From the IMG/VR virus record IMGVR_UViG_2778261619_000009: DNA of 23,862 nt, one strand, 5' to 3'. The translations under genes were made by a program, and so were the position numbers. Position 1 is the first letter of the stretch. Each line of letters starts with the position of its first letter. The notes beneath the pieces are model-generated. The model saw only the letters and a program-made list of their open reading frames with translations, was not told the origin of the DNA and ran no database searches. This stretch comes from a virus. Taxonomy: Duplodnaviria > Heunggongvirae > Uroviricota > Caudoviricetes. This document shows positions 6,304-22,809 of the stretch, piece after piece.

Positions 6304-6767
6304 CAGATAAGCTCCACTGTGCAGTGCGGCGCATCCTGCACCCGGCTGATAGCCCAGCGGGCGTCACGCCACAAATCACCGCTGGATTCCGCCAGTTCCT
6401 CGCCTCGCTTCACACCGGATGCCGTGGCGTCATAGTCCTGGTATCGTTCGTTGAGCATGGCGCGTGCCCAGCAGTAAACCGCGTTGAAATAGTGCTGAAT
6501 GCGCTCACTTTTGCCGTCCAGCTGTTCCGCCGGAACCTCAGCCAGCGACACATACCCCAGCATCTGCTGACGTCTGCGAAACTCATACAGCTCTGCGTTG
6601 ACCTCCGAAATTGCCGACAGCGCAACCTGCTTTAAACGCGGCTGCGTCACCGTGCCGTCAGTGCGCATGACACTGCGAAACTCCGACAGGTCCACATCAG
6701 GCCAGAACGGCGTATTTCTGATGATTTCCGCCTGTTCCGGTGCCTGTTCTGGCGCAACAAACTTCAT
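6303..6767 (-). CDS. L: Head completion/stabilisation protein (P2 gpL-like)
   Basis: Track ORF starts at GTG 6830; trimmed to ATG 6767 (MKFVAPEQ...), which has an AGGAGA SD that the longer frame would translate as ...SGESS. Position after M as in P2. Confidence 0.75.
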   Translation of the reverse strand: MKFVAPEQAPEQAEIIRNTPFWPDVDLSEFRSVMRTDGTVTQPRLKQVALSAISEVNAELYEFRRRQQMLGYVSLAEVPAEQLDGKSERIQHYFNAVYCWARAMLNERYQDYDATASGVKRGEELAESSGDLWRDARWAISRVQDAPHCTVELI

Positions 6768-9566: not shown

Positions 9567-11333
9567 ATGAACACCACACTGACACCCGCAGATCTCGATC
9601 CCCGTCGGCAGGCCATGCTGCTGTACTTTCAGGGATACCGCGTAGCCCGCATTGCTGAAATGCTGGGCGAGAAAGTTGCAACCGTTCACAGCTGGAAAAA
9701 ACGCGACAAGTGGGGTGACTATGGGCCGCTGGATCAGATGCAGCTCACCACCGCCGCACGCTACTGCCAGCTCATCATGAAGGAGCACAAAGAAGGGAAA
9801 GATTTCAAAGAGATTGACCTGCTGGCGCGCCAGTCTGAGCGCCACGCGCGGATCGGCAAGTTTAACAATGGCGGCAACGAAGCCGACTTAAACCCTAACG
9901 TCGCCAACCGCAACAAAGGCCCACGCCGTCAGCCTGAAAAGAATGTTTTCACCGATGAACAAATTGAGAAGCTGGAAGAAATTTTCCATTCCTCCATGTT
10001 TAACTACCAGCGCCACTGGTGGGAAGCCGGAAAAACCAACCGCATCCGCAACCTGCTAAAGTCACGCCAGATCGGCGCGACCTTCTATTTTGCCCGTGAG
10101 GCCCTGATTGACGCCCTGCTTACCGGACGTAACCAGATTTTCCTTTCTGCCAGTAAGGCACAGGCTCACGTCTTTAAGCAGTACATCATCGATTTCGCCA
10201 AAGAAGTCGAGGTGGAGCTGAAAGGTGATCCGATGGTGCTTCCTAACGGGGCCACGCTTTACTTCCTCGGCACCAATGCCCGCACGGCCCAGAGTTACCA
10301 CGGCAACCTGTATCTGGATGAATATTTCTGGATACCGAAATTCCAGGAGCTGCGCAAAGTGGCTTCCGGTATGGCTATTCACAAAAAATGGCGACAGACC
10401 TATTTTTCCACGCCATCCAGCCTGACACACAGTGCTTATCCGTTCTGGTCCGGTGCGCTGTTCAACCGAGGGCGCAACAAAGCCGATAAGGTGGACATCG
10501 ACCTGTCCCACAGCAATCTGGCCCCCGGCCTGCTGTGCGCAGACGGGCAGTACCGCCAGATAGTCACTGTGGAAGATGCGGTGCGCGGCGGATGTAACCT
10601 GTTCGACCTTGACCAGTTGCGCATGGAGTACAGCCCGGACGAATACCAGAATCTGCTGATGTGTGAGTTCGTGGACGATCTCGCGTCCGTATTCCCGCTC
10701 AGCGAGCTGCAGGCGTGCATGGTAGACAGCTGGGAAGTCTGGACCGACTTTCATGCACTGGCGCTGCGCCCGTTTGGCTGGCGCGAAGTGTGGATCGGTT
10801 ATGACCCGGCAAAAGGTACGCAAAACGGCGACAGCGCCGGATGCGTGGTGGTGGCACCGCCAGCCGTGCCGGGTGGTAAGTTCCGCATTCTTGAGCGTCA
10901 CCAGTGGCGCGGGATGGACTTCCGCGCCCAGGCTGACGCCATCAAAAAACTGACCGAACAGTACAACGTGACATACATCGGTATCGACTCAACCGGCGTC
11001 GGTCACGGGGTTTACGAGAACGTGAAAGCGTTTTTTCCTGCCGTCCGGGAGTTTGTCTACAACCCCAACGTTAAAAACGCCCTGGTACTCAAGGCCTACG
11101 ACATTATTAGCCACCGCCGCCTGGAGTTTGACGCCGGGCACACCGACATTGCGCAGTCATTCATGGCAATCCGTCGCGCCACCACCGCCAGTGGCAACCG
11201 CCCAACCTATGAAGCCAGCCGCAGCGAAGAAGCCAGCCACGCAGATTTGGCCTGGGCAACGATGCACGCACTGTTTAACGAACCGCTGCAGGGCGAAGCC
11301 GCCAATACCAGCAACATTGTGGAGATTTTCTGA
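9567..11333 (+). CDS. P: Terminase large (ATPase) subunit (P2 gpP-like)
   Basis: 588-aa ORF; deviant Walker A (LLKSRQIGAT), Walker B (LYLDEYFW), C-terminal nuclease-like domain; size as P2 P (~590 aa). Confidence 0.9.
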   Translation: MNTTLTPADLDPRRQAMLLYFQGYRVARIAEMLGEKVATVHSWKKRDKWGDYGPLDQMQLTTAARYCQLIMKEHKEGKDFKEIDLLARQSERHARIGKFNNGGNEADLNPNVANRNKGPRRQPEKNVFTDEQIEKLEEIFHSSMFNYQRHWWEAGKTNRIRNLLKSRQIGATFYFAREALIDALLTGRNQIFLSASKAQAHVFKQYIIDFAKEVEVELKGDPMVLPNGATLYFLGTNARTAQSYHGNLYLDEYFWIPKFQELRKVASGMAIHKKWRQTYFSTPSSLTHSAYPFWSGALFNRGRNKADKVDIDLSHSNLAPGLLCADGQYRQIVTVEDAVRGGCNLFDLDQLRMEYSPDEYQNLLMCEFVDDLASVFPLSELQACMVDSWEVWTDFHALALRPFGWREVWIGYDPAKGTQNGDSAGCVVVAPPAVPGGKFRILERHQWRGMDFRAQADAIKKLTEQYNVTYIGIDSTGVGHGVYENVKAFFPAVREFVYNPNVKNALVLKAYDIISHRRLEFDAGHTDIAQSFMAIRRATTASGNRPTYEASRSEEASHADLAWATMHALFNEPLQGEAANTSNIVEIF

Positions 11334-12058
11334 TGCACTCAACCCCAACTAACCTCATGACCACCGCCAGCCTGCCTGTAGATCGCCCTTTCTTTGCTTA
11401 CCAGCATGAATGGAACAGTGGCGCACGCAGCAGAAACCGCGTGCTTACAAAAATGCGTCAGGCTGGCGCGGATTTCTTTTTCGCCTACGAAGCCCTGAAC
11501 GATGCACTGCACACCGGACGCAACCAGATTTTTCTGGGCTGCACCCCGGCATCAGCCCTGACCGTCAAAACCTATATATCAGCTTTTTTAAGTGAGGCAG
11601 CAGCCTGGACGCATCTTGGGAAAATAAAATCAGGTAAAGCGCATCTGGAACTCCCAAACGGTGCGGTCATTTATTTTATCGGGCCGGAAAGTCTCGCTGC
11701 CGCGCTCCATGGAAACGTCTACGTGTCAGAGTATGCCTGGGCTGACTCCCCCAAAAATATGATTGCGCTCGCCAAAAGCCTGTCCATGCACGCGCGCTAT
11801 CACGCTACCTACTACACCACCCCAAGCCCCAGCCCGGAAGCATGGCAGGAATACAAGAATCTGATCGCCCGCAACAGCACTACCTGCATGACCTTTACCG
11901 CTGATGACGCTGCAGCATCCGGGGCTACGCTCGCAACCGGAGCCGCGCTCTTTGATGATGAATGGCTGAATGACATGAAAAAAGAATTATCACCGGAGGA
12001 CTGGAAAATGCTGTTTATGTGCGAATGGCCCCAGGCTGACAAGGAGCAGGCGGCATGA
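11333..12058 (+). CDS. Truncated, degenerate paralogue of the terminase ATPase domain (extra gene between P and Q)
   Basis: 241-aa ORF; ATG overlaps the P stop (TGATG) and its stop overlaps the Q start (ATGA). Aligns by eye to P residues ~140-370 (FFFAYEALNDALHTGRNQIFL vs FYFAREALIDALLTGRNQIFL; LPNGAVIYFIG vs LPNGATLYFLG) with Walker A/B positions altered (KMRQAGAD, VYVSEY). Confidence 0.6.
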   Translation: MHSTPTNLMTTASLPVDRPFFAYQHEWNSGARSRNRVLTKMRQAGADFFFAYEALNDALHTGRNQIFLGCTPASALTVKTYISAFLSEAAAWTHLGKIKSGKAHLELPNGAVIYFIGPESLAAALHGNVYVSEYAWADSPKNMIALAKSLSMHARYHATYYTTPSPSPEAWQEYKNLIARNSTTCMTFTADDAAASGATLATGAALFDDEWLNDMKKELSPEDWKMLFMCEWPQADKEQAA

Positions 12059-13095
12059 GCAAACGTAAAAACAAGAACAACCGCGCAGCGGTGGATCACA
12101 ACGCAGAATCTGGCGGCGCTGCGGCAGAGGCGTTTAGCTTTGGCGACCCGGTGCCGGTGTTAGACCGACGCGAATTGCTGGACTACGTGGAATGCGTGCA
12201 GATGGACCGCTGGTATGAGCCGCCGGTGAGCTTTGACGGACTGGCGCGGACCTATCGCGCTGCCGTGCATCACAGTTCACCAATTGCGGTGAAATGCAAC
12301 ATTCTGACCAGTACCTACATCCCTCACCCGCTGCTCAGCCAGCAGGCTTTTTCACGTTTTGTGCAGGACTATCTGGTATTTGGTAACGCCTACCTGGAGA
12401 AACGCACGAACCGCTTCGGTGAAGTTATCGCCCTTGAGCCTGCTCTGGCAAAATACACCCGACGCGGGTTAGACCTGGATACCTACTGGTTTGTGCAATA
12501 CGGTATGACAACCCAGCCGTATCAGTTCACGAAAGGCAGCATTTTTCATCTGATGGAACCGGACATCAACCAGGAGATCTACGGCCTGCCCGGTTATCTT
12601 TCTGCCATTCCGTCAGCCCTGCTCAACGAGTCCGCCACGCTGTTCCGCCGTAAGTATTACATCAACGGCAGCCATGCAGGCTTCATCATGTATATGACCG
12701 ATGCCGCGCAGAACCAGGAGGATGTGAACAACCTCCGCAACGCGATGAAAAGCGCCAAAGGCCCTGGCAACTTCCGCAATCTGTTTATGTACTCGCCTAA
12801 CGGCAAAAAGGACGGACTTCAGATTATCCCGTTGTCAGAAGTCGCAGCGAAGGATGAGTTTCTGAATATCAAGAACGTGAGCCGTGATGACATGATGGCT
12901 GCGCACCGCGTGCCGCCGCAAATGATGGGGATTATGCCTAATAATGTCGGGGGATTTGGTGATGTGGAAAAGGCCAGCAAAGTCTTTGTCCGAAACGAGC
13001 TAATTCCGCTACAGAAGCGGCTGCAAGAACTTAACCAATGGGTTGGTGAAGAGGTAGCTCGCTTTGAATCATATTGTCTAGAACCAAGGGAATAA
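12055..13095 (+). CDS. Q: Portal protein (P2 gpQ-like)
   Basis: 346-aa ORF; FSFGDPVPVLDRRELLDYVEC, ESATLFRRKYYINGSHAGFIMY and KVFVRNELIPLQ match my recollection of P2 gpQ (344 aa). Confidence 0.9.
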   Translation: MSKRKNKNNRAAVDHNAESGGAAAEAFSFGDPVPVLDRRELLDYVECVQMDRWYEPPVSFDGLARTYRAAVHHSSPIAVKCNILTSTYIPHPLLSQQAFSRFVQDYLVFGNAYLEKRTNRFGEVIALEPALAKYTRRGLDLDTYWFVQYGMTTQPYQFTKGSIFHLMEPDINQEIYGLPGYLSAIPSALLNESATLFRRKYYINGSHAGFIMYMTDAAQNQEDVNNLRNAMKSAKGPGNFRNLFMYSPNGKKDGLQIIPLSEVAAKDEFLNIKNVSRDDMMAAHRVPPQMMGIMPNNVGGFGDVEKASKVFVRNELIPLQKRLQELNQWVGEEVARFESYCLEPRE

Positions 13096-13097
13096 AT

Positions 13098-13133
13098 GTA
13101 CTGTTTGTTCAAATTGAACACACAGTACTTTTT
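13098..13133. terminator. Bidirectional intrinsic terminator hairpin between convergent Q and cargo ORF C
   Basis: 15-nt inverted-repeat arms gtactgtttgttcaa / ttgaacacacagtac (14 of 15 paired, 2-nt loop) followed by TTTTT on the plus strand and ATTTATT on the minus strand. Confidence 0.6.
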
Positions 13134-13139
13134 AATATA

Positions 13140-13979
13140 TTAGATGGCTGGGTTGATGTAATCACCCACGTCATCACCTTGTAGACTAATGTACTCAACC
13201 CGCCACTGGTCCATTCGCCGTAACGCATACAGACTGAATTCAACGTCAGGAACTGCGTTACAAGACATAAGCGCAATGAGTTCACTTTCAGACGCATCAC
13301 CATGGTACGTTACAAAGAACTCTTCAATTTGTGTTGCCGCCTGCTCTGCCTCTGCTCTTGCATCCGGCCCACCATCTATAGAATCATAGACAAGATGAAT
13401 ATTCAGTTCGTAAGGTACACCTTCCTCTAAATCATTGAAACGATCTTCGCCTAAATCAAAGAATATACCTATCAAATAGACTGAATGTTTGCTAATTATC
13501 TTTGCGAGTTCTTTTTCGAATCTAAATTTCTTTGTGTCGAAAGCTCTTAGCCTACTCTCAAAAACATCAGGAAAGGCAGGTCGCCCATAGCGGGCAGCAA
13601 GCCATTGTTTTAAACCTTGCTTTTCCTCAGGGGATATTTGGCAAGTAGGGTCACATCCCACACACGTGAAACGTTCTTTATCAATACGAAATTTGTTGTC
13701 ATGTCTTAGTTCAATTGCATTTTGATTCGCGTCACGCGCTTGCTCTAAATGCAAATGCAGAACTCTGGGATGTTTAGCACGTGCATAATTGCTGGCCCCC
13801 TTAATGAGAGGGCCAGCAATAAGCTCAACGCTGGGTTCAGAAGAGCTTTGCAAGTCACAATCATGACTGATCACGACAACTTTAACGCCTATTTCCTCTT
13901 CGGTAAGAATACCCAAAGAAACCGCATCCTCATGCCTAAGAACCTGGCCTTGGCGCCATGCTGTAGCAATATCAACCAT
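13140..13979 (-). CDS. Cargo protein C, 279 aa, unknown function (contains HDC...CVGCDPTC cysteine cluster)
   Basis: ATG at 13979, 10 nt after the ORF B stop; AT-rich codon usage unlike flanking phage genes; no recognisable family motif by eye. Confidence 0.7.
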   Translation of the reverse strand: MVDIATAWRQGQVLRHEDAVSLGILTEEEIGVKVVVISHDCDLQSSSEPSVELIAGPLIKGASNYARAKHPRVLHLHLEQARDANQNAIELRHDNKFRIDKERFTCVGCDPTCQISPEEKQGLKQWLAARYGRPAFPDVFESRLRAFDTKKFRFEKELAKIISKHSVYLIGIFFDLGEDRFNDLEEGVPYELNIHLVYDSIDGGPDARAEAEQAATQIEEFFVTYHGDASESELIALMSCNAVPDVEFSLYALRRMDQWRVEYISLQGDDVGDYINPAI

Positions 13980-13989
13980 AAATGACTAT

Positions 13990-14631
13990 CTACTCCTTCA
14001 TTCCTGAACCAGGTATAGAAACAGACGACATCCACCCGTCAGTTGGCGTGCTTTTGCTCCCAGTTAAATTCGCTTTTACACCTGCAATTTTAAGCTGGCG
14101 AGCTTCATCGATTAAGAGATTCACAGACGACTTCCAGTCATCGCCTCGCTTAATCAAATCAATAATAGATAAGCCGTCAAACGCTTTCATTTTTGACATC
14201 AACTTAGCATTTTCTACTCCTGCTTTGTTAAAGCGATCGGCTAATCTACTGAGTTCAATGATGTAACCAGCTTTCCCAATATCATCAGGCTGACTGTCAC
14301 CGGATAACCATTTGTATAATGCTTGCCTAGTAATACCCAAATCTTTAGCCAGTTCTGACATTGATGGAGAAAGAGTATCCCTAACATTACTTAAATGTTC
14401 TGAAATTGTCCTGATATCAACAGGGTCATTATCTGTATCCCCATGATTTTCAAGTTTAGATAACCCAAAATGGACTTTAGGTTGTACAAAACCACGCCAC
14501 TGGTTTACATCCTTCACAGAATAGCTCGCTCCTGTTCCACTCAGGAACATAGAGGTTGCAACAAATAACGCTCCAGCAATAGGAGCTAAACCAGGAGTCC
14601 CATAGCAACTACCAGTCATGGATTGACGCAT
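13990..14631 (-). CDS. Cargo protein B, ~213 aa: N-terminal hydrophobic segment plus XRE/Cro-type helix-turn-helix
   Basis: Track ORF starts at GTG 14658; trimmed to ATG 14631 preceded by GGGGAGGTG. Hydrophobic stretch LAPIAGALFVATSMFL (residues ~15-30) and HTH SMSELAKDLGITRQALYKWLSG (residues ~90-110). Confidence 0.7.
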   Translation of the reverse strand: MRQSMTGSCYGTPGLAPIAGALFVATSMFLSGTGASYSVKDVNQWRGFVQPKVHFGLSKLENHGDTDNDPVDIRTISEHLSNVRDTLSPSMSELAKDLGITRQALYKWLSGDSQPDDIGKAGYIIELSRLADRFNKAGVENAKLMSKMKAFDGLSIIDLIKRGDDWKSSVNLLIDEARQLKIAGVKANLTGSKSTPTDGWMSSVSIPGSGMKE

Positions 14632-14648
14632 ATTACACCTCCCCGGTG

Positions 14649-15455
14649 TTATACCCACCTATTAATGGCATGTTGGGATACCATTTTATTAAAGCTTTCC
14701 TTTACAACACCATGTAGTGAATTGAACTGTTGCTCAATTGAATCTATTTCTGGCGGCATGTTTCCTTCAACATAATGGTCTGTATCAATAATTCCATGCC
14801 AAAGAGCCTTGTCGCTCCTGAACCGCTCAAGCATTTCAACCCCAAAGGGCAAGATATCTGGAGGAAAACTCAACTGACCAAACATCTTATGCAAACGAGT
14901 TACTAAAAAGCCAGTACTTATAACAGGACCAACATTTGTTTGGAAAACCATCTCGTTAACCGATTGTATCGGAGATAAATCCAAATCTACACCATGTAAG
15001 CCATTGCAAAGGTACTGCTCAATCTTTTCACCCTCACTAGGTATTACGGCATCCAGATACCTCAAACCAAGTCTTGTCAAAAGGGCTGGGTTAGCATGTT
15101 CTATTACGACAGACAATCCTTCCATCAATGCTTTAAAGAACGGTTCATGTTCTTTGTAATCAGTCGTCTGGAAAGTAATAAAATCGTTACCCAAGACAAA
15201 ACCTGAAGTCTTAGTGATGTCAGACATATACCACTGCTGGACCATTTCAAAAGATGGCTGAGGCGATTCACCGGGCGTATTAACATCAAACACCATTTGC
15301 ATTGCCTCTCTTCTTTCAAAGAGTGGATAGCCCCTTAAACGCAATGCTTCCTGAATGTCATCGACATACTTTTTCATCGCCTTGATAGGCGTAAACTTAA
15401 CTTGCGCCAGCACATAGTATACGGGTGCATTGGACATGCGATTGCTGTCACTCAT
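14649..15455 (-). CDS. Cargo protein A, 268 aa, unknown function
   Basis: ATG at 15455 preceded by AGGAGGG (spacing 4); AT-rich; first gene of the three-gene operon. No nucleotide-binding or nuclease motif recognised. Confidence 0.7.
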   Translation of the reverse strand: MSDSNRMSNAPVYYVLAQVKFTPIKAMKKYVDDIQEALRLRGYPLFERREAMQMVFDVNTPGESPQPSFEMVQQWYMSDITKTSGFVLGNDFITFQTTDYKEHEPFFKALMEGLSVVIEHANPALLTRLGLRYLDAVIPSEGEKIEQYLCNGLHGVDLDLSPIQSVNEMVFQTNVGPVISTGFLVTRLHKMFGQLSFPPDILPFGVEMLERFRSDKALWHGIIDTDHYVEGNMPPEIDSIEQQFNSLHGVVKESFNKMVSQHAINRWV

Positions 15456-15570
15456 GTCGCCCTCCTAATTTTAAAATCCATCAATAACGTTCTTTTCAAT
15501 ATAGTTTACATCTTGGTTGACACATTAACCATAACAAAGTTCCATCAAAACATCTTTTGATAACTTTATA
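15456..15570 (-). promoter_or_regulatory. AT-rich leader/promoter region of the cargo operon
   Basis: ~115 bp AT-rich sequence between the cos-like site and the ORF A start, with a TAAAAT -10-like hexamer on the minus strand and a strong SD; exact promoter not resolved. Confidence 0.3.
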
Positions 15571-15589
15571 TTTAAACTACCGGGCGCGC

Positions 15590-15608
15590 GCTCGTATCCC
15601 CGCCACGC
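15590..15608. other. cos: Candidate cos (cohesive-end) site of the prophage
   Basis: Minus-strand reading GGCGTGGCGGGGATACGAG within a short GC-rich island in an otherwise AT-rich intergenic region. From memory the P2/186 19-nt cohesive ends begin GGCGAGG/GGCGTGGCGGGGAAAGCA..., so the first 13 nt match 186; location is the expected A-to-Q interval. Confidence 0.5.
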
Positions 15609-15653
15609 CTGCCCGCTTTATGTAGTGGTTTTCATGCACCTGCATGATCTACG

Positions 15654-15677
15654 CAAAAGCCCGCCAGTTCTGGCGGG
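15654..15677 (-). terminator. Intrinsic terminator of the SOS-regulated small-ORF/DinI-like operon
   Basis: GC-rich hairpin gcccgccag / ctggcgggc; on the minus strand it is followed by UUUUG, ~135 nt downstream of the DinI-like stop. Confidence 0.6.
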
Positions 15678-15813
15678 CCTTAGCAAAAACGATCCTCAAA
15701 CGATCATGCGATCTCATGCGGCATAGACATGCACTACAGAGCTAACGCCTCGCAAGGACTCGTTGTTCAACCTTGCTGACGCCAGAAGCAAGTTCAGACG
15801 CCAGCAACGTTTC

Positions 15814-16047
15814 TTAATGCAGCCAGCTGTCGTCTTCCCACACCTTCTGCATAATTTTCATCACTTGTTTTCTTTCTTCGTCCTGTTGCAGCCCGGTCAG
15901 TTCCACACCGTTAGAGCTACCTTTGCGGATACGAATTACCGTTTTGGGATACAGGGGGCGCAGATTGCGGTAAAGCTCGGATTCAAGGGCGTCCAGGGTA
16001 GACTGGCTAATCTTCTGCTCTTTATCGATCATTATTTCAATGCGCAT
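15814..16047 (-). CDS. dinI: DinI-family protein (DNA-damage-inducible protein I-like)
   Basis: Track ORF 15814..16119 trimmed to ATG 16047 (MRIEIMIDKEQ...DALESELYRNL...VWEDDSWL), 77 aa, GAGGTG SD; closely resembles E. coli DinI (MRIEVTIAK...DALAGEL...). Confidence 0.8.
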   Translation of the reverse strand: MRIEIMIDKEQKISQSTLDALESELYRNLRPLYPKTVIRIRKGSSNGVELTGLQQDEERKQVMKIMQKVWEDDSWLH

Positions 16048-16399: not shown

Positions 16400-18814
16400 T
16401 CAATACAGGTTCCGCCACTTATCATCTTCCTGCAAACGCTGGTTCCGATAGAAGATACGCAGGCCTGCTCCTGACGGAATACTGCCGCCGCGAATGAGTA
16501 AATCGACCTCTTTCTCGCTGCCATCAAATCCTCTGGACTTCAGTTCATAGACGAGCTGCTGTCGTTGATGGTCAGTAATTCGCTGTTTGTAGTCTCTACG
16601 CCGTTTCGGTTTCACCAGGCGTAACCTTGCAGCCAGTTCCCGGCGCTCTTTTTTGTTCATACTGTGCAGGTAATCGTGCAACTCCTTGTCATCCATGCGG
16701 GTGATATCCGTTCTGGTATCCCCATCAGCTGATTTGTCTTTCCCTTGTTGGTACAAATTTTCAGCAAGGGGACAGTTATTGCCACGAGTCCAAGGGGCGC
16801 AAGCGCCCTGGTCGGCTGCCGCCTCCTGAACGTCAACGGCCTTACGAACCATTTTCCACTTCACGGCATGAGTGCAGATCTTGCCCTCTGCAATAGGTGA
16901 CCAGATGCCATAAATACGAATGCCGTGATCGCCATAGGCGGTCGGCTCTTCGTTGATTTCATAAGCAGTTCTGATGAGGTGATATTTGCGGGGAACCAGT
17001 ACGCCACCCTGCTTCATGATGTAGGTGGCAAAACAACCAGCATCAGCAGCAGCCAGAATGGCATCAAGGCGCGGGTTATCCAGTACCGGCGCACCTGCTT
17101 TTTTGTCCCCCTGTTGCCTTGCCGCCTGACCAGCCAGCAATCGCAGTTCACGGTAAGCCTGACGCCCCGGAATGCCAAAGAAGCGGAATTGCTGAACACG
17201 ATGCAGAGACGCCCAGGCATTAACGTATTCAGCATTATCACGCAGGGATTTCCCCGTTTCCTTGCTGATCTCGCCAGCCAGACCACGACCGTCAATGTTC
17301 TTACTGATATATTTCGCGATGTAGCTTGTCGGCGTTCCTTTGCGCGGGTTAATCAACTCAGACTTAAAGCGCGGCCCAGTGTTATTGCCCAGCTCCTCGC
17401 GGTCTTCACGGATGGCAAACTTACGCAGTAATGCAGTAATGGCACGGCGGTCTTTTTTGCGCATGAAACACAACAGGTGCCAGTGAACTGTGCCGTCATG
17501 ATGCGGCTCAGCCACCCGCACGCCATACCAGCGCAACCCGGCTTTGTGCATCGCCTTACGAAATGCAGCAAACATGCCGACCAGATAATCGCTGCTTTGT
17601 CTTACCGTCGCGTTTGTCCAGGTCGGGTTTGGTCTGCCGTTATTTAGCGTGGAATGGAAACGCGACGGACAGGTGATAGTGTAGAAAACGGCGCAGTCAC
17701 CGCGCATTTCCGCGATAAGCTCCAGACCTTTAACACAGGCCATCATCTCATTGCGGCGATGCGCAGGGTTGCTGCTGCTGGCGTTTACCACATCCTCCAT
17801 GTCCAGCGTGTCGCCGTCTTCGTTCACCAGTTCATGAGAACGGAAAAACTCCAGCGACTTACGGCGCTGCTCACGTTTATGCATCACGGCTTCATAGCTG
17901 ACATAGGGAGATGCTTTTTTGCTGACCAGACAGACAGCACGTAACTGCTCTTCCCGCCATTCGCAACGCATCTTCCATAATTTCCGATACCACCAGTCGG
18001 CGCACAGCATACGCGCCAGCGAACCCGGAATGAGTTCATAGGGCACAGGTTTGCGGCGGTTTCTTTTCCGGCGGAGTTGCTCAAACGCAGGCGGTATGAC
18101 ATCCAGTCGCAGGGTTTCTGCTGCCACCTTTTCCCATGTCTTGCGGATTTCTTCCGGCTTAACATCATCGGAGGCGTACAAATCACCACAAGCGGCATCA
18201 AGACACATGCTCATATGCGCAGCGACAAGGGTGGACAGGCGTTTCACCTGATCCTGACTCATTTCAGGCAGGATCAGCAGACCGTCCAGCCCTTCATGGC
18301 TTGCCATAAAACGAAAAGATGCAGATAGCTGGCTGTCGCGTACATGCTCCAGTCGTTCCAGGCATGGCTTAATCGTCTCACGCAAATAGCGGGAATAAGC
18401 CTTTGGCCTGCCCAGGTTGCTGAAGTATTTAATACGTTGCATCAGCGGCTTGCTGATATGGGAAGGCTGGGCGTTGACATCCGCCAGAATGACCATGTCC
18501 GGATTAAAACGCTGCTGCTCATGCGCCAGCTTTGCCCGGCTAATTAGCTTATCCTGCTCCATTTCGCGCTGGACAGGATCACGGGATTCATTAAAGAAAT
18601 AACGCTCCCAGACCTGATCACTCAGTGCCTCGCGGCGCAGTTGTTCCTGCTCGTTATCGGCAGCGTACAAAGTGATCAGGTTTGAAAGCGCAGAAACCGG
18701 CGCAACTTCCGCCGGGTCCAGATAAGGGTTAATGGCCTTTTTCGGGCTGTTCCATGAGAATGCTGCGGCAGCCTCGTTAAAGCCGCAGCAGTTGTTCATA
18801 TCGGCATGACTCAT
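16400..18814 (-). CDS. A: Replication initiation endonuclease, rolling-circle type (P2 gpA-like)
   Basis: 804-aa ORF, ATG at 18814 (ATGA overlap with dam stop); histidine motif GTVHWHLL and tyrosine active-site pair in [11 protein letters not shown], typical of P2 A-family initiators. Confidence 0.9.
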
Positions 18815-19668
18815 GCACGTACTCCGTACACGGCAGAACTGTCCACGCCACGCGAATAATCAAACCCCACCCAGCAGCACGGCCCGGAAACAGCAATGAT
18901 TTCTGTTGCTGATTTACCCTCGCCAGCTGCCACACCGATGCTGCGTTTTGCTTTGATGTAGTGGTGGGTGAAATTGCGATACAACGAACGGATCAGGGAT
19001 GTGTCACTGTTAGAAACAATGACCGGATGTCCTTCTGATGACCGATGTTCAAGAACGGATGCCAGGTGATACTGGTCATCTTCAGTGAAACCATCAGTGT
19101 GATAGCCGGAAAACGTACCGTCATACGGCGGATCGCAATACACCACATCCCCCGCCTTCAACATCGCCAGCGTTTCATCAAAGCTGGCGCAGATAAACGT
19201 TGCTCGCTGGGCTTTTTCTGCAAATGCGCGAATTTCTTTTTCAGGGAAATACGGATTTTTATAATTACCGTAGGGAATATTGAAATGCCTGCTCTTGTTA
19301 TAGCGACATAAACCACGGTAACCGTGACGATTGAGATACAGGAAATATACCGCTTTCATGAAATCAGTAATTTCAGTTGAGTAATTAAACTCCTGCCTTA
19401 TGTTGTAATAAGCCACCTCCCTGTTTGCTTCCTCAAATAAAGCTCTGGCGCGAGATATAAACGATTCACAATCAGCAGCAACCTTTTTATAGAGGTTGAT
19501 TAAATCAGGATTAATATCCGCAACCAGATAGCTGGGGTACTCCGTCTCCATCATCACTGCACAGGAACCCGCGAAAGGTTCAACCAGTCGCGGGCCAGCA
19601 GGAAGATGCTTTTTCAGTTCGGACATAATGGCGGTTTTATTTCCCGCCCATTTCAGGATGGTGCTCAT
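18811..19668 (-). CDS. dam: DNA adenine methyltransferase (Dam-like, N6-adenine)
   Basis: Track ORF trimmed to ATG 19668 ([11 protein letters not shown]..., GGAGGTG SD, ATGA overlap with upstream gene); FAGSCAV SAM-binding motif and catalytic DPPY ([10 protein letters not shown]); collinear with E. coli Dam. Confidence 0.85.
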
Positions 19669-19892
19669 ACAGCACCTCCGTTGTAATGTTTGCCTTTCAG
19701 CTCTGCGATTTCCTGACAGGTAATGCAAAGCTGCACACCCGGAATGGCGCGGCGGCGTGCTGGCGGAATTGGCGCTTCACACTCAATGCAAAGCACGCGG
19801 GACACGCCCGGCGTTTTGGCACGGGCAGAACGGATATGGCGCTGGCGTTCTTCTTCAACGCGCTGCTGTACGAGATCCATTGCATCAGCCAT
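19665..19892 (-). CDS. DksA/TraR-family C4 zinc-finger protein
   Basis: 75-aa ORF with CIEC...(17)...CITC zinc-ribbon spacing typical of TraR/DksA C-terminal fingers. Confidence 0.7.
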   Translation of the reverse strand: MADAMDLVQQRVEEERQRHIRSARAKTPGVSRVLCIECEAPIPPARRRAIPGVQLCITCQEIAELKGKHYNGGAV

Positions 19893-20125
19893 TAGTGGAT
19901 CTCCTGCGCTTCGTTCTGGATTGCTTCAGCTGCCACACGCAGCAGTTCAGCCGCTTCAACGTGGTTTAGCTGGCGGGATGTGATATGGCACGCAAGGCTA
20001 TCAAGGCGAGCTGCCATTGCTTCAGCTCTTGCCCGGCGTTCTTCCAGACGAGCCTCTGTCAGTAAAATATTAAGTCCTGCGTCATCCGGTCCGGTTTTAG
20101 TCGAGAGGGTTTCAATATTACGCAT
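19892..20125 (-). CDS. Hypothetical early protein (77 aa)
   Basis: Track ORF starts at TTG 20131; trimmed to ATG 20125 preceded by AGGAGA (spacing 7); helical, charged composition. Confidence 0.5.
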   Translation of the reverse strand: MRNIETLSTKTGPDDAGLNILLTEARLEERRARAEAMAARLDSLACHITSRQLNHVEAAELLRVAAEAIQNEAQEIH

Positions 20126-20192
20126 AATCAATTCTCCTGAATTTAGATAAAGGAATGCCCGGCGGGTTTACGCCATGAATTTCATTAATTGG

Positions 20193-20534
20193 TTAATTCG
20201 GCAGGGCTAGCCGTCTGGGAAATAAGCTCACCACTGCACGAAGATGATTCATTACTTTAATCAACTCCCGCTTTTCGTCAGTGGTCAGCTCATTAATGCT
20301 GATGCTATGACGTTCAGCTGGAATTTTTGCTATAAAGAATATAGCAGCCAGTGCTCGTTTATTTCGTTCATAATTAACATCCCGTGGATCACGTATATCT
20401 TTAATAAACCGCTCAAGCTCTGACTCAATATTCAGGCCAAATACTTTCGCCCTTAATTCCGCAATATGATTAAGTCCATTCAGGCGTTCACCTGGGCTTA
20501 ATGGAACAGTCGCCGCAGCGCCATTAATTGCCAT
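20193..20534 (-). CDS. Hypothetical early protein (113 aa)
   Basis: ATG at 20534 with GGGGGA SD; in the early operon between cII and A. Confidence 0.5.
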   Translation of the reverse strand: MAINGAAATVPLSPGERLNGLNHIAELRAKVFGLNIESELERFIKDIRDPRDVNYERNKRALAAIFFIAKIPAERHSISINELTTDEKRELIKVMNHLRAVVSLFPRRLALPN

Positions 20535-20556
20535 ACTTCATATCCCCCAAACGCAC

Positions 20557-20781
20557 CTATCGTTCTTTGTTCTTACGGTAACGCTCAAGGGGAGATACAT
20601 TTTTTCGTACCGTCTCTTTAACCTGCTCTCCCCGTAAAAACGTCCCATCCTTTAGCGTGAAAAAGTAACTGCCATCGCCCGACAACGACGGATAACAACA
20701 GAGCAAATCATCTTCAGGTACTGAATAACTCTCCCCTCTGTAACAAAACTGATAAACCACTTCACTTTCCGCTGCATACAT
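20557..20781 (-). CDS. Hypothetical early protein (74 aa)
   Basis: ATG at 20781; acidic, globular-looking sequence; overlaps the 3' part of ORF 20652..20948 in another frame. Confidence 0.45.
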   Translation of the reverse strand: MYAAESEVVYQFCYRGESYSVPEDDLLCCYPSLSGDGSYFFTLKDGTFLRGEQVKETVRKNVSPLERYRKNKER

Positions 20782-21719: not shown

Positions 21720-21844
21720 GATGCAACATTCCTCGTTTAATGATGATTAATCAGGACGAATACGGATCGTTTGTATTTTGTGAACACCATAAACATACGA
21801 TCGTACAATGAAATCGTCAAGATAAAAGTTCACTTGGAGTGACC
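21720..21844. promoter_or_regulatory. Lysis-lysogeny switch region (face-to-face promoters and operators) between apl and cI
   Basis: Intergenic region between divergent apl and cI; two copies of an ATACG(G)ATCGT-containing palindromic motif (21759..21777, and 21794..21810 with perfect TACGATCGTA); TACAAT -10-like hexamer at 21803..21808. Confidence 0.5.
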
Positions 21845-22414
21845 ATGAATTTGGAGAAAGGCGGACGAGGCGCTATAGAGCGCATGGTAGAAGCTTATGG
21901 ATTCAAAACTCGACAGGCGTTGTGCGATCATTTAGGAATCTCTAAAAGTACACTCGCCACACGCTACATGCGTGACTCATTCCCAGCAGAATGGGTAATC
22001 CAGTGCGCCCTTGAAACGGGCACCTCGCTTAATTGGCTCACAACCGGACATGGTTCAAAGCAAACTTCAGGTAATACAAATACTATGGAAGTTGCTAAAT
22101 ATGTATTATCTGATGGTGCCTTGCGTGAAGACGGTTTTTATATTTTTGATAAGGGATTTCTACCCTCTACGTTTAAAAAACCTTTTGTCATCACAGATAA
22201 CAATTCTGAATTTATTTGTGATAAAGAATTTGATGATATACGTGATGGTAAATGGGTAATAAGTATTGATGGCGAAGTAACGATCCGTGACATTACTCGT
22301 TTACCCGGTGGAAGAATCTTCGTCGAGGGTGGAAACAGAGCCTTCGAATGTAAGATAGAAGACATTGAAATAATTGGTAAAATTATAAGTTTAACAGTCA
22401 AGTATGTTAAATAG
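21845..22414 (+). CDS. cI: CI-type immunity repressor (phage 186 CI-like)
   Basis: Track ORF starts at GTG 21839; ATG 21845 with GGAG SD gives 189 aa; N-terminal HTH (RQALCDHLGISKSTLATRY) and separate C-terminal domain; 186 CI is ~192 aa. Confidence 0.75.
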   Translation: MNLEKGGRGAIERMVEAYGFKTRQALCDHLGISKSTLATRYMRDSFPAEWVIQCALETGTSLNWLTTGHGSKQTSGNTNTMEVAKYVLSDGALREDGFYIFDKGFLPSTFKKPFVITDNNSEFICDKEFDDIRDGKWVISIDGEVTIRDITRLPGGRIFVEGGNRAFECKIEDIEIIGKIISLTVKYVK

Positions 22415-22429
22415 TACCGGGAGGAAACT

Positions 22430-22621
22430 ATGCTTGGTAAGGTATTTTTTGTGGTTTTGTCATGTTCTTTGTTATTAAACCCACTAACTACCTATGCTAG
22501 AAATTATCCCTGCTCAGGGAAAAAGGGAGGTGTTTCTCACTGTACCTCAGATGGCAAATTCGTTTGCAATGATGGAACTATTAGTAAATCCAAAAAAATC
22601 TGTACTAAAAACTCACGATAA
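22430..22621 (+). CDS. Small secreted cysteine-containing protein (63-aa precursor), AT-rich moron
   Basis: GGAGG SD 5 nt before ATG; N-terminal signal-peptide-like segment ([23 protein letters not shown]) followed by a ~40-aa Lys-rich peptide with four cysteines; very AT-rich relative to neighbours. Confidence 0.55.
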
Positions 22622-22809
22622 CTTTTGCTTTTATATCTGCGTCTAAAATAAAAATGAGCCGCAGGTTAACCGCAAAAGTTACATGCTCACATAGCAAAAA
22701 GAATAGCCAACTTCATTATGGCTTCAGTGAGATGTATGGTCGTAGGATTTCATACATTGACACTGGTTATACATACAGTAAAAATGCTCTCTACTGGAGG
22801 GCATTTTTT

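Follow-up and report, generated by a model that had tools for sequence, protein, structure and literature searches.

The question raised by this locus is whether a small group of AT-rich genes in a P2-like prophage is an anti-phage system, as an earlier note on the same DNA had proposed, and by what mechanism it might act. The DNA is the 23,862-nucleotide IMG/VR record IMGVR_UViG_2778261619_000009, the whole of which we call the window; it is a P2/186-like prophage, recognisable by genes for terminase P, portal Q, a DinI-like protein, A, dam, CII/Fil-type proteins, CI and integrase. Three further genes, here named gA, gB and gC, form a cassette between the portal gene Q and the replication gene A. 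We conclude that the cassette is swappable accessory cargo (a moron) and not part of the phage core. The conclusion that the trio is an autonomous, horizontally mobile accessory operon, probably autoregulated, is well supported. That it is an autoregulated, tripartite, toxin–antitoxin-like module for abortive infection or defence is, in our judgement, an evenly balanced proposition. We infer the anti-phage activity from location, mobility and architecture.

The genes of the cassette and the elements that bound it are the following.

14649..15455, minus strand: gA, first gene of the operon, a TIGR04255-family protein of 268 amino acids (aa)
13990..14631, minus strand: gB, an XRE-type helix-turn-helix (HTH) protein of 213 aa counted from the ATG
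13140..13979, minus strand: gC, a two-domain candidate effector of 279 aa
15460..15466, minus strand: Shine–Dalgarno sequence AGGAGGG of gA, read from the sequence, 4 nt before the gA ATG
12055..13095, plus strand: portal gene Q, inner border of the slot (Pfam Phage_portal; RefSeq 'phage portal protein' in the related locus L001)
13098..13128, no strand assigned: bidirectional hairpin terminator between the convergent Q and gC, from RNA folding
15591..15609, minus strand: cos-type cohesive-end sequence GGCGTGGCGGGGATACGAG, outer border of the cargo slot

The gaps between the genes are 17 nt (gA–gB) and 10 nt (gB–gC), and each gene has a ribosome-binding site: AGGAGGGCG at the Shine–Dalgarno sequence of gA, which is conserved among the enterobacterial copies, GGGGAGGTG located 4 nt 5′ of the gB ATG, and AAGGAG before the gC ATG. 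gB would be 222 aa long if an upstream GTG were used as the start, and RefSeq calls the 213-aa form. Re-reading the open reading frames (ORFs) confirmed what the earlier note had described, three co-directional minus-strand genes with strong Shine–Dalgarno sequences and these short gaps. The hairpin (dG −15.5 kcal/mol, z −4.28, none of 200 shuffles equally stable) lies between the stop of Q (13095) and the stop of gC (13140), with T/A-rich tracts on either side; the proposal that a hairpin shared with Q and a cos-like site bound the cassette is therefore borne out. GGCGTGGCGGGGATACGAG is also found beside the insert that Rousset et al. cloned from the P2 hotspot of E. coli E1114 (a P2-like clone in their Table S2A), and the P4 sequence given in the same table is GGCGAGGCGGGGAAAGCAC (PMC9122126). 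The GC content of the cassette is 0.423, against 0.529 in Q, 0.564 in P and 0.532 in A, and a sliding profile falls to 0.40–0.44 across 13000–15500. The drop that had been estimated by eye is thus present (cassette at 42%), but the flanks lie at 53–56%, so the earlier figure of 55–60% was slightly high.

By position, between A and Q and adjoining cos, the cassette is an occupant of the gpA–gpQ hotspot, as the earlier note had recognised; its placement between A, cos and Q matches the published definition (PMC9122126). Rousset et al. (2022) described 1,650 gene arrangements among 18,150 loci at this hotspot, several of whose occupants have been shown to be anti-phage systems (PMC9122126), and a 2026 survey confirmed that this is where P2 phages chiefly exchange defence genes (PMC13586616). 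P2 hotspots also hold non-defence cargo such as cytolethal distending toxin and partition genes, and about a quarter of P2-like phages carry partition genes in the gpA–gpQ slot (PMC9122126). We used window positions 13000–15700 as a megablast query against 5,426 complete E. coli genomes. The cassette was present in one of them (CP106929, 99.8% identical), and the cos-proximal 116 bp (window 15585–15700, cos included) in 1,277, a single one of which carries the cassette. Prophage loci L087–L089 have a matching backbone and other small genes in the slot. Prophage GPEC1405 (L002) has a backbone 91–96% identical to that of the window and a diverged trio, whose proteins are 57–61% identical to ours; at the DNA level the two cassettes share a single megablast stretch of 78% identity, which is mostly cos-proximal non-coding sequence and reaches the first ~110 nt of gA, and blastn found no match between L002 and the window over the rest of the cassette. 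The comparison of the slot across related prophages, which the earlier note had called for, accordingly shows the cassette to be swappable. The chance that the trio supplies conserved core functions of P2-like phages is practically nil. Its position between Q and cos is the only point in favour of such a role; nearly all P2-like prophages that have the cos flank lack the trio, other genes fill the slot in L087–L089, the trio is found in non-phage chromosomal contexts of many phyla, and a scan of PHROGs gave no significant structural or replication match. We rule out a core function by the cassette frequency (one genome against the 1,277 with the flank).

The three genes behave as one unit well beyond E. 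coli. A profile of gC homologues detects related proteins in 161 of the 185,579 species genomes searched, belonging to the gamma-, beta- and alpha-proteobacteria, Nitrospirae, Chloroflexota, Omnitrophota, Chlamydiae, Verrucomicrobia, Gemmatimonas and Acidobacteria, and an exhaustive HMMER search yielded 2,090 gC-family clusters at 50% identity, all of about 260–290 aa. In all 86 loci compared, the matches to hidden Markov models (HMMs) of gA, gB and gC are adjacent, in the same order and on the same strand; this synteny is kept around gC relatives of ~30% identity and gA relatives of 29–36% identity. The identities of the three proteins to those of the window co-vary across 132 phylogenetically non-independent loci (r 0.94–0.98). 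The trio is also present on 51 IMG/VR viral contigs, in about 35 of which it lies beside a P2-like portal, with a terminase P 59–100% identical to that of the window. A single ORF of 427–440 aa encodes both gA and gB in three metagenome-assembled genomes of Arenicellales.

L073, 6706-7986: gA–gB fusion ORF
L076 and L077, 6643-7962: gA–gB fusion ORFs

The gB part of these ORFs begins at profile position 70, such that gA stands in for the N-terminal ~70 residues of gB, and the hydrophobic segment otherwise found there is absent. Because of these fusions we suggest that gA and gB work as a complex. In two metagenome-assembled genomes of Chlamydiae (L051, 3729–7992; L082, 5684–8001) gB and gC lie apart, with an insertion of 2.3–4.3 kb between them, and the gC of L051 is broken into two ORFs; a mobile element has probably disrupted both copies. 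Some copies of the trio adjoin a BrxR/SNF2 helicase, a DUF4011 helicase, BREX, Hma, type IV restriction, HEC-09 or PDC-S27, and the neighbours of the trio include transposases, resolvases, ParA, TniQ and PIN genes.

The relation of the trio to described families was evaluated by scanning all three proteins against Pfam, NCBIfam, PADLOC-DB v2.0.0 (including its PDC and HEC candidates) and PHROGs. No defence-specific model in PADLOC-DB v2.0.0 was matched by gA, gB or gC, and none of them contains a Walker A motif; on both points the earlier note was correct. A wider statement, that no family can be assigned, would be too strong: gA is a TIGR04255 protein, gB is an XRE-type HTH protein, and the N-terminal domain of gC has a MazF/CcdB fold. 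The description of the system as undescribed holds for its function, which is uncharacterised, but not for the proteins. The accessions of the window's own gB and gC are listed in Table S5A of Rousset et al. under 'hypothetical x4 + DinI', and Table S5B gives the L002-type variant, counted 69 times, as curated system #59 ('HTH_31') (PMC9122126). That system is the same three-gene family in the same slot, 57–61% identical to the window, and its proteins carry the motifs NAPVYY, THDCDL, KQWLAA and DQWRVEYIS; it was named from a weak HTH match, and the catalogue gives no function, structure or cis element for it. The family is already catalogued, yet it is an uncharacterised candidate defence system. 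We also searched the literature with the WP accessions and for three-gene systems resembling MazF, and found no relevant paper.

The candidate effector, gC, belongs to no sequence family in Pfam, NCBIfam, PADLOC or PHROGs, and its family profile has no sequence match in the PDB. Two structure searches, independent of each other, gave its N-terminal domain, an SH3-like barrel of ~100–115 aa, the fold of the MazF/CcdB toxins. In Foldseek the top 39 matches of gC were all chains of MazF/MoxT/CptN-type toxins, with CcdB at rank 45 and target TM values of at most 0.63. The C-terminal half is alpha/beta. H39–D40–C41–D42, E52, R72 and the W126–R133 segment are invariant down to 30% identity. gC shares only the fold with MazF, and we do not place it in that family because hhalign gave no support; the fold may serve a different function from that of MazF. 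Weak fold matches of the C-terminal half to MNT, AAD(9) and CdnD raised the possibility of a nucleotidyltransferase, which we rejected, the candidate residues D175 and D199 not being conserved across the wider family.

gB has an HTH at approximately residues 75–116 (Pfam HTH_3, 23.5 bits against a cutoff of 23), and HTH_3 is matched by 37 of 38 gB homologues. The recognition helix, TRQALYKW, is invariant in the family (R102, Q103, Y106, K107 and W108). A profile search of the PDB with gB returned HTH fragments only, and the PADLOC matches, to RmrA and mad1, are weak and at the level of the HTH (E 0.003–0.007). The C-terminal region is conserved, with no family detectable in the profile scans; a ParS/Xre-antitoxin-like (DUF2384) domain was considered for this region and rejected, as no profile supported it. 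Residues 14–32 of gB form a hydrophobic segment that ends in an invariant GTG and is missing in some homologues, and Table S5B of Rousset et al. records '1 TM in protein 2' for the variant (PMC9122126). If this segment were a membrane anchor, a membrane-associated gB together with gA and gC could act in superinfection exclusion or counter-defence, with no killing of the cell, against DNA entry by incoming phages or against a system of the host or of a satellite (P4). The segment, a transmembrane helix according to Rousset et al., would fit such a role, and the cassette adjoins cos, where P2–P4 conflict genes cluster (PMC9122126). We nevertheless regard exclusion as highly improbable: the segment is borderline, some homologues lack it and the fusions have gA in its place; the trio is mostly found in bacteria with no P2-like context; and anti-defence genes are rare in P2 elements (PMC13586616).

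gA matches TIGR04255 over its full length (161.2 bits against a cutoff of 30, E 4e-47; residues 6–267 on profile positions 1–251 of 252), and RefSeq annotates it in the same way; a search with TIGR04255 and its synonyms found no mention of the family in a searchable literature of roughly 8 million papers. A PDB sequence-profile search with gA gave no match, and neither gA nor gC has a match in PADLOC at E up to 1 or a significant PHROG. The AF2 model of gA (pLDDT 92) is a large antiparallel sheet with helices behind, and the invariant residues R128, R132, D135, E168, D224 and D226 lie on its strands, which suggests a ligand or catalytic site. The closest structural neighbours are guanidino kinases, McsB, glutamate–cysteine ligase and glutamine synthetase; the sheet with its invariant Arg, Asp and Glu resembles the fold of the guanidino (arginine/taurocyamine) kinases, the protein-arginine kinase McsB and the glutamine-synthetase-fold enzymes. 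This likeness raises a physiological explanation, in which the trio would be a regulated stress or physiological module unrelated to phage that the prophage carries as a hitch-hiking fitness factor, gA being an ATP-using enzyme (kinase- or ligase-like), gB its regulator and gC a substrate-binding or accessory protein. Enzymes as structural neighbours, invariant Arg/Asp/Glu on the sheet, the frequency of housekeeping neighbourhoods and the non-defence cargo of P2 hotspots (PMC9122126) are all consistent with it. We consider it quite unlikely, as the trio shows no metabolic linkage and no conserved neighbour beyond itself, is patchily distributed (161 of 185,579 species) and appears repeatedly in phage hotspots; the toxin-type fold of gC and the AT-rich, foreign composition fit conflict systems better.

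The region upstream of gA contains a repeat element that is conserved across trio loci, and with it a putative promoter.

15503..15531, minus strand: putative promoter and operator, from cross-locus conservation
15531-15526, minus strand: −35-like TGGTTA, within the putative promoter
15522-15516 and 15510-15504, minus strand: direct heptamers TGTCAAC and TGTAAAC
15508-15503, minus strand: −10-like TAAACT, overlapped by the repeats

The element occurs once in the window, its downstream end 47 nt 5′ of the gA ATG. GTCAAC-N6-GTA[AT]AC is found directly 5′ of gA in 64 of 86 loci, in nearly all of these as a single copy in the 10–17 kb of the locus; under relaxed scoring (at least 10 of 12 matches) it is recovered in 80 of 83 loci against 1 of 130 control regions, and two of the three loci below this threshold have the motif slightly farther upstream. 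The consensus from an anchored alignment is TGg-N8-gtGTCAACCa.ggTGTAAACTgacaac...a.tgtcaac, with two to four direct heptamers TGT(C/A)AAC starting at 0, 12, 19 and 31, TAAACT in the −10-like place, and TTG/TGG in the −35-like place ~17–18 nt upstream. A generic sigma-70 scan upstream of gA called no promoter, and the promoter we propose therefore rests on conservation across loci. Only one locus, L073, clearly lacks the repeat motif, and there the recognition helix is degenerate (VSERTLFLW). Because the helix is otherwise invariant, and because it is degenerate in the locus that has no motif, we suggest that the repeats are the operator of gB, and we infer from the sequences that gB binds the heptamers and represses its own operon. 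This conserved cis element is newly described here; the catalogue gave none. A 7-bp inverted repeat, ATCAAAA-N4-TTTTGAT, was also evaluated as the operator and rejected, since it is absent from the other loci. In the window it reads ATCAAAA-GATG-TTTTGAT and lies within 15523–15590, between cos and the gA promoter region; as it is not conserved in other trio loci, it is probably unrelated to regulation of the operon. In Serratia sp. L9 (L011, ~6400–6480) the operon leader between the operator motif and the gA start holds a microsatellite, (GTGAGATA)n, with about seven tandem copies of the unit, where related loci have one imperfect copy. The microsatellite might be a phase-variable switch.

We suggest the following mechanism. 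The recognition helix of gB would bind the heptamers and repress the operon, as type II antitoxins and defence regulators do. The effector, or toxin, would be gC, perhaps acting as an RNase or through another nucleic-acid-directed activity; gB, whose gene lies directly upstream in the usual position of an antitoxin, would restrain it. gA may associate with gB and act as a sensor or modulator that releases gC upon infection. An infected lysogen would stop growing or die (abortive infection), sparing the host population from competing phages. We read gB and gC as antitoxin and toxin because the HTH gene sits directly upstream of the gene with the MazF fold. The proposal of defence draws on the hotspot location, the rarity and swappability of the cassette, its AT-richness, the synteny, the fusions, the co-divergence of the three proteins, the phage-borne copies, the repeats and the defence-type neighbours of some copies. 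A bolder form of this proposal, which we hold tentatively and think somewhat more likely wrong than right, is that the trio represents an unrecognised, widespread immune family, in which gA, with its kinase- or ligase-like sheet, senses infection, gB is an HTH adaptor or repressor that gA binds directly and that is possibly membrane-associated, and gC is a MazF-fold effector with a new HDCD active site. Such a family would take in at least 2,000 gC clusters at 50% identity, from several bacterial phyla and from P2-like phages.

The same arrangement of genes could also belong to a tripartite addiction module, which would stabilise the prophage or another mobile element by post-segregational killing and have no meaningful anti-phage activity. 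An HTH gene directly before a MazF-fold gene, operator-like repeats over the putative promoter, sporadic occurrence across phyla among transposases, resolvases, ParA, TniQ and PIN genes, and the many chromosomal copies outside defence islands would all be expected of such a module. However, addiction of the plasmid type brings little benefit to a P2-like prophage once it is integrated, and the gpA–gpQ slot holds mostly anti-phage cargo, even if about a quarter of P2-like phages have partition genes there. Many toxin–antitoxin modules also act in defence, and the two roles are not exclusive. We therefore judge addiction on its own to be unlikely.

Several observations weigh against the proposal of a toxin–antitoxin-like defence module. 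hhalign of gC with a hand-typed five-sequence MazF/Kid/ChpBK alignment gave a probability of 0.13%, and the catalytic Arg and Thr of MazF cannot be aligned in gC. The proteins of the trio are two to three times larger than the components of classical type II toxin–antitoxin systems. The repeats are direct and not palindromic, which is atypical for XRE-type dimers. With a median KD19 of 1.56, the hydrophobic segment of gB is no more than a borderline candidate for a membrane helix or anchor. Many copies lie among housekeeping genes (a type II secretion operon, glucokinase, peptidase). The neighbours surveyed at 27 loci (135 ORFs), a heterogeneous set that allows no enrichment statistic, revealed no dominant defence signal; they likewise revealed no linkage to metabolic genes and no conserved neighbour beyond the trio. 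Finally, system #59 'HTH_31' is absent from the cloned systems of Table S2 of Rousset et al. and is a catalogue entry only (PMC9122126).

Comparison with characterised systems helps to define what is distinctive about the trio. The '3HP' system of Rousset et al. (hp+hp+hp, pFR109) is a validated three-gene P2-hotspot system active against P1; like the trio, it consists of three proteins with no recognised domains in the same P2 hotspot with the same cos type. Its proteins are 341, 365 and 228 aa long, whereas those of the trio are 268, 213 and 279 aa, and we rejected identity of the two (best BLASTP E 0.3, no match to the gA, gB or gC HMMs). MazEF, Kid-Kis and CcdAB have no sequence similarity to the trio. 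Unlike the MazEF and CcdAB toxins, gC is 279 aa long, with an additional domain at its C-terminus and an invariant HDCD/E/R cluster of its own; gB, the putative antitoxin, is a 213-aa XRE-type HTH protein, whereas MazE and CcdA are of the AbrB or ribbon-helix-helix type; and MazEF, Kid-Kis and CcdAB have no obligatory third gene, where the trio has gA. MqsRAC and the toxin–antitoxin–chaperone (TAC) systems are tripartite, with a regulator or third component. They resemble the trio in having three co-transcribed genes, one HTH and one toxin-fold protein, and in being mobile and sporadic; they differ from it in that the trio combines TIGR04255 with a two-domain MazF-fold protein, and gA and gC match no PADLOC model.

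Other features of the window lie outside the cargo slot.

9567-11333: terminase P
15814..16047, minus strand: DinI-like gene on the gpA side of cos, backbone and not cargo (Pfam DinI, E 3e-23)
16400..18814, minus strand: replication gene A, backbone (Pfam Phage_GPA, E 2e-127)

The DinI-like gene is kept in the prophages with other cargo (L087–L089). Compared to L001 and L002, the window has a 788-bp insertion (11336–12123) between terminase P and portal Q. It contains a plus-strand ORF (11333–12058) of 241 aa, whose start overlaps the stop codon of P and whose stop overlaps the start codon of Q, and whose product is 33% identical to residues 145–368 of P, the region of the Terminase_6N ATPase domain (E 1e-14). 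At a coverage of at least 80% the ORF is present in only 21 of the 5,426 E. coli genomes, annotated there as 'terminase large subunit domain-containing protein'. This second, truncated terminase ATPase gene within the packaging operon might serve as a decoy, act against satellites or modulate packaging. Other AT-rich stretches (GC 0.37–0.45) are found at 19000–19750, 20000–20750 and 21750–22750, covering the 5′ region of dam, the DUF5347/Fil region and the CI–integrase junction. The CI-type ORF of the window has 191 aa, and L002 has a 300-aa 'phage repressor protein CI' and extra genes. From these AT-rich stretches and the differing CI-type ORF, the immunity region of the prophage also looks mosaic.

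The trio is a candidate hotspot-borne toxin–antitoxin-like module and is not categorically new; nor is it a conceptual surprise, since unknown cassettes are expected in the gpA–gpQ hotspot. What was a catalogue line, 'HTH_31', can now be put to the test, with four adjacent invariant residues in gC and a predicted repressor with a putative operator of 19–30 bp, and the natural gA–gB fusion predicts a physical complex. The trio also illustrates that modules pass between P2 hotspots and the chromosomes of distant phyla. If the trio is a true defence system, it would constitute a broad family missed by PADLOC, and by Pfam for gA and gC; it would also provide the first function for TIGR04255 and for two unnamed protein families, and would add a defined operator–repressor pair.

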